In this document: positions 33,796 to 52,438 of the stretch, in pieces | Layout: every line of letters starts with the position of its first letter | Position numbering within the stretch: position 1 is the first letter of the stretch | Origin: Flaccisagitta enflata | Taxonomy: Eukaryota | NCBI GenBank assembly: GCA_965153355.1 | Contig: OZ231126.1 | Location: 6,820,001 to 6,884,000, forward strand | DNA length: 64,000 nucleotides | Direction of reading: 5' to 3' | The notes under the pieces: model-generated | Database searches by the model: none | Seen by the model: only the letters and a program-made list of their open reading frames with translations | What the model was told of the DNA's origin: nothing | Made by a program: the position numbers and the translations under genes

Positions 33796-33869
33796 TTAAA
33801 CGCAGTCGTCCCTTTTAACGTTGGCTGGCCAGTCGCAAATGGAAGAGGCGGGGTTGAACCAAAGACCAG
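33796..33869 (-). CDS. Chitinase terminal exon: C-terminal part of CBM14 (peritrophin-A) chitin-binding domain; untranslated if the exon-9 stops are real
   Basis: ctttgacag|CT GGT CTT TGG... = GLWFNPASSICDWPANVKRDDCV*. Joined to exon 9 it reads KCTAGLWFNPASSICDWPANV, the CxxGLxFNPxxxxCDWP end of CBM14. Confidence 0.85.
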
Positions 33870-34705
33870 CTGTCAAAGGGAAATGACGACAAGTAAAGTT
33901 TGTGAGTTGTGGGGGCATGAGGCGGGGTTGAACCAAAGACCAGCTGTCAAAGGGAAATGACAACAAGTAAAGTTAGTGAGTTTTGGGGGCATGAGGCGGG
34001 ATTGAACCAAAGACCAGCTGTCAAAGGGAAATGACAACAAGTAAGGTTACTGAGTTGTGGGGGCATGAGGCGGGGTTGAACCAAAGACCAGCTGTCAAAG
34101 GGAAATGACAACAAGTAAGGTTACTGAGTTGTGGGGGCATGAGGCGGGGTTGAACCAAAGACCAGCTGTCAAAGGGAAATGACAACAACTAAGGTTAGGG
34201 AGTTGTGGGAATGTGGGGGCATGAGGCAGGGTTGAACCAAAGACCAGCTGTCAAACAAAATGACAACAAGTAAGGTTAGTGAGTTGTAGGGGCATGAGGC
34301 AGGGTTGAACCAAAGACCAGCTGTCAAAGGGAAATGACAACAAGTAAGGTTTGTGAGTTTAGGGGGCAAATGGAAGATGGGGGGTTGAACCAAAGACCAG
34401 CTGTCCAAAGGAAATGACAACAAGTAAGGTTTGTAAGTTTGGGGGGCATGAGGAGGGAAATGACAACAAGTAAGGTTTGTGAGTTTAGGGGGCAAATGGA
34501 AGATGGGGGGTTGAACCAAAGACCAGCTGTCAAAAAGGGAAATGACAACAAATAAGGTTTGTGAGTTTAGGGGGCAAATGGAAGATGGGGGGGGGGGTTG
34601 AATCAAAGACCAGCTGTCAGAAGGAAATGACAACAAATAAGGTTAGTGAGTTTAGGGGGCATGAGGGGGGGGAATAAGGTTAGTGAGTTTAGGGGGCATG
34701 AGGGG
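33845..34705. repeat. 74-bp minisatellite made of intron 3' end + first codons of the CBM14 exon
   Basis: Minus-strand unit ...ctcactaaccttacttgttgtcatttccctttgacag|ctggtctttggttcaaccccgcctc; ~11 units, degenerating away from the exon. Confidence 0.95.
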
Positions 34706-35048
34706 GGAGAAAAGGAGACAGGGAAGCAAGGGAAAATTGTGGTCAGCGATACCCATTGCCCTGCTTTGCATGATTGTGAATTTGAGTGTGGAAAAGCTGG
34801 ACAGCGGCCCCAAAGGGAACTGATTGAGGGCCCTTAAGAGCCTGAAGGAGAGTGAATAACAAGTGGCAAGTGAGTGGAGGTTTGATAAGACAGAAGAGTA
34901 AAGAAGGAGGACAAAAAGTAGGAGAGGAGAATGAGTAGTGAAGCAAGGTCAGGTGGATATGGTAAGGGGATAAGAGACGGAGAAGGAAAGGATGGGGAGG
35001 CGAGTAAATCAAAGGTCGACACGTAAGAGGGATAAGAAAGGGACAATC

Positions 35049-48509: not shown

Positions 48510-49439
48510 CTGAAAAGGATCAGAATAAAGGTTATGTTAGTACAAAGTGTTGGATCAACATCCTGAGGCCAAAAAAACGCCACATGAAAAGGATTATAGT
48601 AAAGATCATTTAAATACAGAATGTTGGATTAACATCCTCAGGCCAAAAAACACTGCCTGATTAGGATTGAAATAAAGATCATTTGAATACAAAGTGTTAG
48701 ATCAACATCCTCAGGCCAAAAAACGCCACCTGAATGGGAACAGAATAAAGATCATTTGAGCACAAAGTGTTGGATCAACATCCTCAGGCCAAAACACACC
48801 AACTGAAAATGATTTGAATAAAAATCATTTGAGTACAGAATGTTGGAGCTACATCATCACATTCATCAGGCCAAAAATGCTGCCTGATTAGGATTGAAAT
48901 AAAGATCATTTGAATACAGAATGTTAGATCAACATCCTCAGGCCAAAACTCGCCACCTGAAAAGGATCAGAATAAAGATCATGTGAGTAAAATTATACAT
49001 ACAAAGTGTTGGATCAACATCCTTAGGCCAAAACACACCACCCTGAAAATGATTTGAATGAAGATCATTAGAGTACTGAATGTTAGAGCTACATCATCAG
49101 GCCAAAAAAATGCCACATGATTAGGATCAAAATAAAGAAGTACAGAATGTCGGATCAACATTCTCAGACCAAAAGACGCCACCTGAAAAGGATTAGAACA
49201 AGGCCGGATACACGGCTACCCCAGTCGCGTGCGGGTGGGCAGGGGCCATAATTGAGGTCAGTGGAGCATTTGGGCAGGAGCAGTAAGGCCAAAAACCACA
49301 TTAACGCCAAAAAAGTAAAGTGTGACGGACCGACGGACCGACGGACCGACGGACGGACCGACAAAGCAGGGTGTAGAGTCGCGTAGCACGCGACTAAAAA
49401 AGTTCATGTGAGTACAAAGTGTTGAATCAACATCCTCAG

Positions 49440-52102
49440 GAGATATTCCGTGGCGTTCCTTTATAACATATTAAACCGCCAAAAATCGTTTTAAAAATGC
49501 AAAAAAATGGATAATTGTAACAAAAATTATGAATTCTTGTCACAAAAATTGCTTGAAAAGGGCGTTTTGAAATGACTTAGAATGACCTAAAACGACCAAA
49601 ATTGACTTAAAATGACTAAAAAACCAAAAAACCAAAAATAACTTAAAATAACTTAAAATGACTTAAAATGACTTAAAATGACTTAGACTGACTCAAAATG
49701 ACTTGAAATAACTATAAATGACTTAAAATAACTTAAAATGACCTAAGAGTTGACGTTATAGTACAAAAAAGTAAAGTGTGACGGACGGACGGACGGACGG
49801 ACGGACGGACGGACCGACGGACGGACGGACGGACGGACGGACCGACAAAGCGGGTTGTAGAGTCGCGTGCACGCGACTAAAAATGCAAAAAAATGGATAA
49901 TTGTAACAAAAATTATGAATTCTTGTCACAAAAATGCTTAAAAAGGGCATTTTGAAACGGGCGTTCTTATGCAGTTTTAAAACGATCTGATATTGTCGTT
50001 TCAAAACCACAAGTATGCGCAACTTTTGAAACGAATATTGAGGCATAGTTGTCGTTCCAAAACTTAGCAATTCTAAAGTTCTAAAACCATGAGATTTTTG
50101 CATTTCAAAACGCTTGAAAACAGTGCTAAAGTAACGGCCAGCAAGGGAAAAAATCTATATATCTTTGTAATCTTAACACCTTTTTTACTGTTTTGAAAAC
50201 GCAAAAAATTAAAGTATAGAAACTAAGAAAAAATGTGTTAATAAATTGAAATATGGTTATATGCTAACTATGGCAAAATAAAAAAAGACAGTAATTTTCA
50301 AAATTATATTGTGAGCTCATTTTTTAGAGCAGCTTTATAATTAGTTTGTCAAATTTGCTACCTAGCAAAAAAATCAGATCTTGAAAAAGTTTATTTTTGC
50401 GCCCATAGCATTGATTTTTGCAAAATTTGTCTGTTGAACAATCGCCGAGTTAGTATCTGTTTCAGTTTAGATCTAACTTTGAAAATCAACTGTGAGCTCA
50501 ATTCTTAAAGCAAGATCAAAATTTTTGAGTTGGTGATAGCATGTCAAATTTCTGACACAGTAAAAAAATCAGAACTCAAAAAAGTTTATCACTGTAGCTG
50601 CAACATCAATTTTTGTAAAATCGGTTTAAGTTAGATGGTTAGATGGTTAATTTTTGTGAATAGACCTCAAAAAAAAGATTTAGAATTGATATCCAGTTTT
50701 GACAGATTTTATAAGAATTGATGTAGAAGGTACAAAAATAGACTTTTTTGAAATCTGATTTTTTTGCTATGTCAGAAATTTGACCTGCTATCACCATCTC
50801 AAAAATGTTGATCTTGCTCTAAAAATTGAGCTCAGAGTAAGTTTTCAAAGTTTGATCTGAACTGAAACCTATTTGGCAGTGGTTCAATTGACAAATTTTG
50901 CAAAACTCAATGCTGTGGGCGCAAAAATCAACTTTTTCAACATCTGATTTTTTTACCAGGTAGCAAATTTGACGAACTATCACAGTCTAAAAAATTATGA
51001 AGCTGCTCTGAAAAATGAGCTCACAATATCATTTTGAAAATTACTGTCTTTTTTTATCTTGCCATAGTTAGGTGGAACAATTTCTCTGACTTTGCCCAAA
51101 CTGAAATGAATGGAGGAGGGCCCCGTTAGCCCTCACTGACTGGCTAAAACGCGCGCCACTCATGGTTTTCCATAAAACTGAATCTGAAAGACATTCGTTT
51201 TGGACAGCAGCCCCAAAGGAGTTGATGACCTATGCTTTCACACATATGCGGTATTGTATCCTCCTCCTTCTTCATCTCCTTCATAACCCCCTTCCCCCAA
51301 CTTCTAGGCCCATATCTCAGCCTTGAGGCCCATATCCAAGCCTCGAGGCCCAAATCCAAGACTTGAGGCCTAAATTCCAACCTTAAGGCCAAAATCCCAA
51401 CCCCAAGGCCCAAATTCCAGCCCGGGCGTGTGTGTGTGTGTGTGTGTGTGTGTGTGTGTGTGTGTGTGTGTGTGTGTGTGTGTGTGTGTGTGTGTGTGTG
51501 TGTGTGTGTGCCTGTGACATGGGGGCTGGACACCCTTGCTTACCAAAATTTTGTAATATTGTTGTCGAATTGTGAGTCCATGTCACCTGTATTTTATGTA
51601 AATTTGCTAAAGTTGAATGTTTAACTACTTTGATGGACGCTACAAAAAGCTTACTTTTTACATTTTTGAAACTGCAAAATATTGAAGTTTTGATACTGCA
51701 AAAAAAATGAAGTTATGAAACCTTTTTACAAGCAACTTTTTTACACTTTTAAAACTGCAAAAGAATTGCATAGTTTTACTACCAAAACATACTGTTTGAA
51801 AAAGCTTATTTTTTTCAGTTTTGAAACGGCAAATAATAGCTGGCTAGAAGGGAGAAAAAAATGTTATTTTAGTCATGTTTTCAAAAGCCCTTTTTATGCA
51901 GTTTTGATACTCCCAAAAAACGCGGTTTCAAAACGGCAACTATGCCTGCGTTTTGAAACCCCAGATTTCAGCCACAAAAGGACGTTGTTGTATGCATAAA
52001 TGTTTTTTTTGGACGTCCTGAAACTGCTGCATACTAGGAGTTTTGATACGTCGTTCCCCTATTTGGGATGATAATGCCATAATAACGCCAACGAAATACC
52101 TG
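49440..52102. mobile_element. Composite non-autonomous DNA transposon inserted in the exon-2 junction array
   Basis: 8-9-bp TSD atcctcag(g) at 49432 and 52103; imperfect TIRs gagatattccgtggcgtt / aacgccaacgaaatacctg. Confidence 0.65.
50264..51071. mobile_element. Foldback element (~0.8-kb imperfect palindrome) with the same terminal motif ctaactatggcaa
   Basis: ctaactatggcaaaataaaaaaagacagtaattttcaaaa ... ttttgaaaattactgtcttttttt..ttgccatagttag; the arms pair to the centre. Confidence 0.85.
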
Positions 52103-52438
52103 ATCCTCAGGCCAAAACACGCCACCTGATTAGGATCAAAATGAAGATCATTTCCGTACAGAATGTTGGATCAACATTTTCAGACAAAAACACACCACTT
52201 GAAAATGATCAAAATACAGAGTACAGAATGTTGGATCGACATCAACATCAACATCAAAAACGCCACCTGATTAGGATCAAAATGAAGAGTACATAATGTT
52301 TGATTTACATCTTCAGGACAAAACACTTCTAAAAATGTGGTTTGGACTAGTTTCTGTCAGCATGAAAATAATCAACTATTGCTCTCAAAATAAGTAAGCG
52401 GTTGATGCTGGACTGCTCACGTTGAATCCCGTATTTAC

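Follow-up and report, generated by a model that had tools for sequence, protein, structure and literature searches.

In several human genes the first monomer of an intronic minisatellite lies across an exon-intron boundary; one report (PMC1557585) names F7 IVS7 with a 37-bp unit, 6-16/IFI6 intron 2, CBS IVS13, LMNB2 (100 bp) and PDGF intron 4 (81 bp). In F7 IVS7, according to that report, the array begins with a unit that straddles the end of the exon, and splicing takes place from the most upstream donor alone, although the pseudo-sites are competent (PMC1557585). Internal tandem repeats located at exon-intron boundaries have been also described in recently duplicated human genes, where they are reported to alter introns and splicing (De Grassi & Ciccarelli 2009; PMC2812944). 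Three further papers deal with the gain of introns when an AGGT proto-splice site is duplicated in tandem (PMC2891723; PMC3265369; PMC4974935). Here, we describe a GH18 chitinase gene in a 64-kb stretch of the genome of Flaccisagitta enflata (contig OZ231126.1, positions 6,820,001 to 6,884,000; henceforth the window), in which three minisatellites have units that extend over a splice junction: the acceptor of exon 2 (array a), the donor of exon 8 (array b) and the acceptor of the last exon (array c). Since junction-spanning arrays are already known from human genes, the chitinase arrays are a further example of this kind. All observations come from this one window, with one chitinase gene, chosen post hoc, and one visible end of a paralog.

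The gene is located on the minus strand, from 52548 to about 33796, and its exons were mapped by tblastn of transcript proteins followed by refinement of the splice sites (Table 1). A protein search with exon 4, which contains the GH18 DxxDxDxE motif, returned P0001, a protein of 420 aa encoded by a 2149-nt contig and 100% identical over this exon. Because 2149 nt is far below the 16.6 kb that separate the start codon from the stop in exon 9, this contig represents a spliced transcript. P0001 matches the Pfam family Glyco_hydro_18 (PF00704, E = 1.1e-85), and eight of its nine exon alignments with the window are identical, the single difference being I/T in exon 7. The same search revealed the paralog-like proteins P0002, P0004, P0005 and P0009, which comprise 346-487 aa and are 97-77% identical over exon 4. 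A search for related loci in metagenome contigs left 72 loci, among which only L001, the transcript of the paralog P0009, is close (76%, the others at most 49%); no genomic locus of a paralog was recovered among the 72.

The 48-nt unit of array b takes 42 nt from the end of exon 8 (KYPLLTTIHNMLIK, where the GH18 domain terminates) and adds the 6-nt donor GTAGGT; Tandem Repeats Finder (TRF) reports it at 36213-36472 with a period of 48. The copies account for 287 nt of intron 8, which measures 371 nt in total. P0001 reads ..HNMLIK/GVGPVES.., which means that the most upstream donor is used; each of the four GTAGGT decoys that follow this donor scores equal to it, with 7 of 9 matches to CAG/GTAAGT. 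Identity to the functional copy drops with distance (96, 87, 83, 84 and 79/88%), one donor has been lost, and the last one, GTATGC, continues into the 3' end of the intron, where about 85 nt bear no relation to the unit.

Array a is larger and has a more complex history. Its 73-nt unit joins the last 18 nt of intron 1, i.e. the pyrimidine tract and CAG, to 55 nt from the start of exon 2, coding for the conserved GGxFWPEDVDPTLCTxM; TRF reports it at 48458-49198 with a period of 73 and a higher-order period of 227. Decayed copies occur also further into the intron, beyond two later insertions, without which intron 1 measures 1073 nt, 959 nt of it (89%) contributed by the array. The reading of P0001, ..QYRPEG/GKFRPEDVDP.., shows that the exon-contiguous acceptor is used. 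By eye, AG is kept in 7 of the 9 proximal decoys, and their identity to the functional copy is not monotonic with distance (81, 76, 85, 81, 70, 87, 78, 77 and 83%). The decoys retain FWPEDVDP and ATC, the states found in the paralogs, and the live exon 2 has FRPEDVDP and ATT; array a is therefore older than the substitutions in the live exon. The decoy that adjoins the real acceptor (48534-48583) has CAT in place of CAG, and in it the exon-derived TGTACTCAC has become TGTACTAAC; this gives a perfect TACTAAC of the branch-site type, located 32 nt before the real AG.

The reiteration of exon sequence within an intron invites the suggestion that the arrays mark the origin of the introns, which would have arisen when AGGT proto-splice sites in the exons were duplicated in tandem (the Rogers model). 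Intron 1 has AG/GT at both of its junctions and the units are mostly exon-derived; as in AGGT intron gain, exon-derived sequence has turned intronic since the duplicated segment supplies a splice site. However, the units of all three arrays hold genuine, non-exonic intron sequence (6-49 nt; array a has 18 nt and array c 44-49 nt), and the first 114 nt of intron 1 and the last 85 nt or so of intron 8 are unique and unrelated to the units. The persistence of these remnants implies that the introns pre-existed and were inflated subsequently. A whole intron that copies the flanking exon, with both sites from one duplicated AGGT, is not seen here. Intron gain by tandem duplication was reportedly treated also by Zhuo et al. 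in PNAS in 2007; for the chitinase gene we consider such an origin very improbable. The similarity between the end of exon 1 and the start of exon 2 (GEGKY and GGKF), which was considered as a trace of duplicates that created intron 1, does not hold, because this GxGK echo at the end of exon 1 is out of frame and coincidental.

In the unit of array c an intron end of 44-49 nt, with CTAAC, a pyrimidine tract and CAG, precedes 25-37 nt from the last exon, the exonic part CTGGTCTTTGGTTCAACCCC.. encoding GLWFNPAS(SIC). In TRF it appears as 33845-34457 and 33845-34715 with periods of 74 and 82, and a higher-order period of 213 bp is also among the rows. Units near the exon measure 74 nt and the older, distal ones 80-87 nt; CAG is kept in all 10 decoys that were scored, and away from the exon the copies become less similar to the functional one, from 96% identity down to 84%. 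The junction itself is a putative one, deduced from homology to P0004, P0005 and P0009 and from agreement in phase with the donor of exon 9, and in this copy it is a relic. P0001 ends exactly at an in-frame TGA in exon 9 (35970-35968), upstream of the relic last exon, and no transcript or protein with the last exon of this gene was found, the protein search giving only P0005 (85%).

A tandem paralog ends about 29.4 kb away (62595-64000) and is colinear with 31534-34671. It carries an intact last exon preceded by an array with the same TRF consensus as array c, in which 3 of about 10 complete copies have CAC in place of CAG. The 3' flanks of the two loci share about 95% identity close to the last exon and 75-85% further downstream. 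Both arrays display variants in the same order, namely TTTTGTTTGACAG followed by CCCTGCC, two adjacent CAGTAACC units and AATCCC units, and the number of units after the first shared landmark is 5 in array c and 7 in the paralog array, a difference of 2 units. As the ordered variants are common to both loci and the copy number differs, array c predates the gene duplication and its length has changed since. These data bear also on whether the arrays are artefacts of assembly, a suspicion raised by the repeat-rich region and by a 2-nt deletion in exon 1 relative to the transcripts, which could be an assembly error. Such an artefact is extremely improbable: the copies differ by many substitutions and show gradients of decay, array a has been invaded by transposons that left a target-site duplication, and array c is found at two separate loci with variants in a common order.

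Thus, the initial annotation, which had described three independent junction-spanning minisatellites with a functional terminal copy and with copies that decay into the intron, holds in most but not all respects. Junctions and use of the terminal copy are confirmed by P0001 for arrays a and b; for array c the junction rests on homology and the terminal copy is a relic. Decay with distance from the functional copy is evident in arrays b and c, and is not monotonic in array a. Three founder events agree with the independence of the arrays, with the qualification that array c was inherited from before the gene duplication. The two further statements, that the arrays reiterate splice sites and that they have expanded the introns, are well founded on the donor scores, the retention of AG and the intron shares given above.

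Compared with the human cases, the chitinase arrays have the organization of the F7 IVS7 type: head-to-tail intronic units of 10-100 bp (73, 48 and 74, in 5-11 copies), a terminal unit that joins exon and intron (with the exon identified by homology in array c) and use of the exon-contiguous site in arrays a and b. Array b is the nearest counterpart, as it begins in the exon and reiterates in the intron a donor whose pseudo-sites are as strong as the real site, the most upstream one being used in P0001. Unlike in the F7 type, two of the three arrays reiterate acceptors instead of donors, all three occur in one gene, and each unit includes 42-55 nt of exon as compared to 4 nt in F7; besides, the chitinase pseudo-sites are predicted ones. 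In the accessible literature our search for acceptor-spanning minisatellites returned nothing specific, the human cases found being donor arrays. With the cases of De Grassi & Ciccarelli the chitinase gene has in common recent paralogs, long units and repeats at the border that alter intron structure; however, those cases were defined by differences in copy number between paralogs and by alternative forms supported by transcripts, and for the chitinase one paralog end is visible and alternative forms are not known.

Taken together, it is probable that the arrays are ordinary minisatellites, each derived from a single tandem duplication that straddled a junction, in a duplication-prone genome and a recently duplicated chitinase gene. 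The units of the three arrays match nothing else in the window except the paralogous array at 63326-64000, which indicates that they are derived locally and not transposon-borne. According to the mechanism that we propose, three founder duplications, one per array, would have been tolerated because each unit brought its own splice site: splicing would keep the copy contiguous with the exon, i.e. the most upstream 5' site in a donor array and the 3'-most AG in an acceptor array, and the extra exon-derived copies would be spliced out as intron. Where a duplication overlaps an exon and carries no splice site, it would in most cases disrupt the frame and disappear. Most of the founder unit is exonic in array b (42 of 48 nt) as well as in array a (55 of 73 nt), as survivorship of exon-overlapping duplications predicts. 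Unequal exchange or slippage, in part of multi-unit blocks, would then have enlarged the arrays before transposons inserted into them, and this growth may have taken the introns from roughly 100 nt to 371 nt (intron 8) and 3.9 kb (intron 1), with the decoy sites as by-products. The higher-order periods of 227 and 213 bp, together with the subfamily shift from 82 to 74 bp, show such growth to be stepwise, as in ordinary minisatellites, and not a repeated targeting of the junctions.

Instead of being by-products, the decoys could be the reason why the arrays were kept, if they tune splicing, direct transcripts to nonsense-mediated decay or give rise to in-frame isoforms with extra 16-aa units of array b. 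The period of array b equals 16 codons, its frame is open through copy 5 and its donors are as strong as the real one; furthermore, array c is retained in both paralogs, and the nearest decoy of array a looks remodelled, with AG lost and TACTAAC gained. However, the open frame exists because the copied unit is stop-free, and hence it is no evidence of selection. The canonical sites are the ones used in P0001, and the reiterated 16-aa unit was found in none of the proteins of at least 204 aa among 3033 candidates (E <= 0.01), which is a weak negative. Array c is conserved no better than the adjoining unique 3' flank (about 95%) and persists in a copy whose last exon is dead. We therefore regard retention for decoy function as quite unlikely, and the isoform diversity envisaged in the initial annotation has found no support in the one transcript, spliced at canonical sites, or in this protein search.

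It could be also argued that tandem duplication is biased towards junctions, by way of transcription, splicing or the pyrimidine tracts, and that it seeds arrays at splice sites genome-wide. To estimate the chance expectation we used a founder-unit null, in which an array counts as junction-spanning when the unit that founded it, p nt long, included any of the J junctions of the ancestral gene, whose length is L0 (J = 16-20, L0 = 8-18.7 kb). A null based on repeat coverage (25% minisatellite) was rejected, as expansion adds bases instead of covering old ones. The expected number of junction-spanning arrays is 0.5-1.5 for the six unique arrays with a period of at least 30 and 0.8-2.4 for all 25 arrays with a period of at least 10, and P(>=3) ranges from 0.007 to 0.44 across the settings, so that whether the count exceeds chance is undecided and depends on the assumptions. 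The background is a window of which 40.2% consists of tandem repeats (16.7% microsatellites and 23.5% repeats with a period of at least 10; 183 TRF rows merged to 122 loci), the shares for the chitinase gene being 32.8% for all tandem repeats and 25% for minisatellites. A shorter ancestral gene, or the counting of all arrays, brings P to 0.1-0.44; the post hoc choice of the gene, the later growth by multi-unit blocks in place of fresh junction events, and the survivorship of exon-overlapping duplications, which yields the same pattern, also speak against a bias. In favour of a bias, three of the six unique arrays of the gene with a period of at least 30 extend over a junction (P as low as 0.007-0.03 under some nulls), and a possible fourth case, a 41-bp array in the neighbouring gene, could be invoked. 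The initial annotation had placed this array at the end of an intron before a predicted exon of the neighbour; on the minus strand its unit does contain a pyrimidine tract and AG at the end, and the last copy adjoins a splice-site-like segment of 40 nt that ends in GGGAG/GTAATT, which fits the earlier idea of an exon without demonstrating it. However, no open reading frame, Pfam match or homology was found for an adjacent exon, and that claim is not confirmed. The junction-biased process proposed in the same annotation is not supported either, given the repeat cover, the expectation under chance and survivorship, and we consider it unlikely, with the reservation that a single gene cannot settle the matter. 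Its lineage-wide form, a preferential seeding coupled to transcription or splicing or caused by slippage in pyrimidine tracts, appears to us quite improbable; if true, junction minisatellites would be a genome-wide route of intron growth and would confront the spliceosome with banks of decoy 3' and 5' sites, to be either ignored or exploited.

Four points weigh against the origin of the arrays as ordinary minisatellites with neutral decoys. Under the stricter nulls the three junction-spanning arrays among the six unique ones with a period of at least 30 are above expectation (P = 0.007-0.03 if the ancestral gene measured 13.5-18.7 kb). The silence of the decoys is assumed, and the loss of AG and the gain of TACTAAC in the nearest decoy of array a, as well as the loss of AG in three decoys of the paralog, hint at some selection, so that the decoys may not be fully neutral. 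Finally, this copy of the gene may be decaying, with a stop before CBM14, loss of exon 10 and a deletion in exon 1, and tolerance of the arrays may therefore not be general.

The arrays provide a clear case from nature, and from outside the vertebrates, of introns that owe most of their inflation to copies of their own junctions, and with up to ten near-identical 3' splice sites in one array they present a configuration that we did not find described in the literature searched. This makes them a natural test bed for the rules of splice-site choice, and also a warning for the annotation of repeat-rich genomes, because the decoys give tblastn matches that mimic exons. As such, the structure is what a very high rate of tandem duplication is expected to leave behind, and a new question would be raised only if a genome-wide enrichment were real.

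Table 1. Coordinates of the chitinase exons, the junction-spanning arrays and associated features in the window (a slash marks the splice junction)
Feature	Position	Strand	Remarks
Exon 1	52548-52439	-	signal peptide ..YYTNWAQYR; donor GAAG/GTAAAT
Array a, distal decayed copies	52324-52103	-	about 3.5 copies, 72-81% identical to functional junction
Repeat-rich insertion, 2.66 kb	49441-52102	-	within one array-a unit; flanked by 9-bp direct repeat (CCTGAGGAT)
Array a, partial decayed copy	49440-49396	-	alignment
SINE-like element	49197-49400	-	(GTCC)n tract; inserted in array a; dispersed copies
Array a, proximal block	48510-49201	-	nine decoys at 49201-48534, directly upstream of real acceptor
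Exon 2	48509-48367	-	starts GKFRPEDVDPTLCTHMIFSFG..; acceptor is 3'-most copy of array a
Exon 3	47541-47414	-	AG/GT borders, matches P0001
Exon 4	39203-38990	-	AG/GT borders, matches P0001
Exon 5	38636-38510	-	AG/GT borders, matches P0001
Exon 6	37913-37782	-	AG/GT borders, matches P0001
Exon 7	37303-37100	-	AG/GT borders, matches P0001
Exon 8	36541-36432	-	AG/GT borders, matches P0001
Array b	36145-36431	-	six copies in intron 8
Array b, functional donor	36431	-	AAG/GTATGT
Array b, decoy donors	36383, 36335, 36287, 36239	-	AAG/GTAGGT
Array b, dead donor	36201	-	AT
Array b, last donor	36152	-	GTATGC, runs into original intron
Exon 9	36060-35949	-	Gly/Pro/Thr/Val linker; followed by putative donor ACAG/GTAAGG
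Array c	33870-34715	-	10-11 copies, before relic last exon
Relic last exon	33869-33796	-	C-terminal half of CBM14; (A)GLWFNPASSICDWPANVKRDDCV, stop TAA
Paralog 3' end	63252-64000	-	intact last exon 63325-63252
Paralog 74-bp array	63326-64000	-	at least 9.5 copies, runs off window; same TRF consensus as array c
41-bp minisatellite	2370-3392		25 copies; TRF

As to the state of the gene, this chitinase copy is truncated and may be decaying. In paralog proteins the sequence extends into CBM14, with P0004, P0005 and P0009 carrying the domain, and those that have it measure 485-487 aa; in the window copy an intact CBM14 (PF01607) does not follow the linker, and the C-terminal half alone survives. 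An exon for the N-terminal half is absent from the region 34716-35948 of this copy. The segment 34727-34820 (also delimited as 34760-34830) was tried as the missing exon and rejected, since it is a dispersed repeat that matches 56817, 55747, 56315, 43990 and 57601. Exon 1 of the window (CAATACAGGC--GAAG/GT; 52439-52460) is 2 nt short in comparison with P0001 (QYRPEG) and L001, which shifts the frame, and this deletion stems from a null allele or, alternatively, from an error in the assembly. Among the paralog-like proteins, P0002 (346 aa) ends with ..GYTVRPPRAQSHVRLQHQRTQLGGI, which resembles the normal KYHPEHKAMY.. in another frame and suggests that P0002 may be translated from a frameshifted paralog transcript. 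Directly adjoining the acceptor of exon 5 (ctctctctccctcag/G) there is a (GA)46 microsatellite (38637-38730), which reads (TC)n on the gene strand and apparently serves as the pyrimidine tract of this acceptor.

Dispersed repeats are found throughout the window. The SINE-like (short interspersed nuclear element-like) sequence of about 200 nt that interrupts array a, with its (GTCC/GACG)n tract, has copies at 40326-40537, 41383-41594, 47950-48157, 49197-49400 and 53898-54098, which are 74-90% alike. Another dispersed element, a source of many of the minisatellites in the window, has a 20-bp minisatellite (ATTTGGGCCTCGAGGCTGGG) in its interior and a flank that is conserved (..PLWGRCP.. when translated); its copies include 23568-23982, 28035-28490, 42028-42564, 42835-43185 and 56467-56761. 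Downstream of exon 9 there is a 317-bp tandem duplication (35050-35715; 2.1 copies, 95% identical); the segment duplicated there also matches 51072-51196 (83%), so that this is a duplicated dispersed repeat. Among eight other long open reading frames in the window, seven had no Pfam match and one (21496-21891) had three weak matches, all below the curated cut-off. A minus-strand frame of 879 codons at 11625-14261, likewise without a Pfam match, contains coding tandem repeats of 69 bp (12.8 copies, 23 aa), 78 bp (3.1 copies, 26 aa) and 42 bp (4.4 copies), and is probably a gene for a repeat-rich protein.

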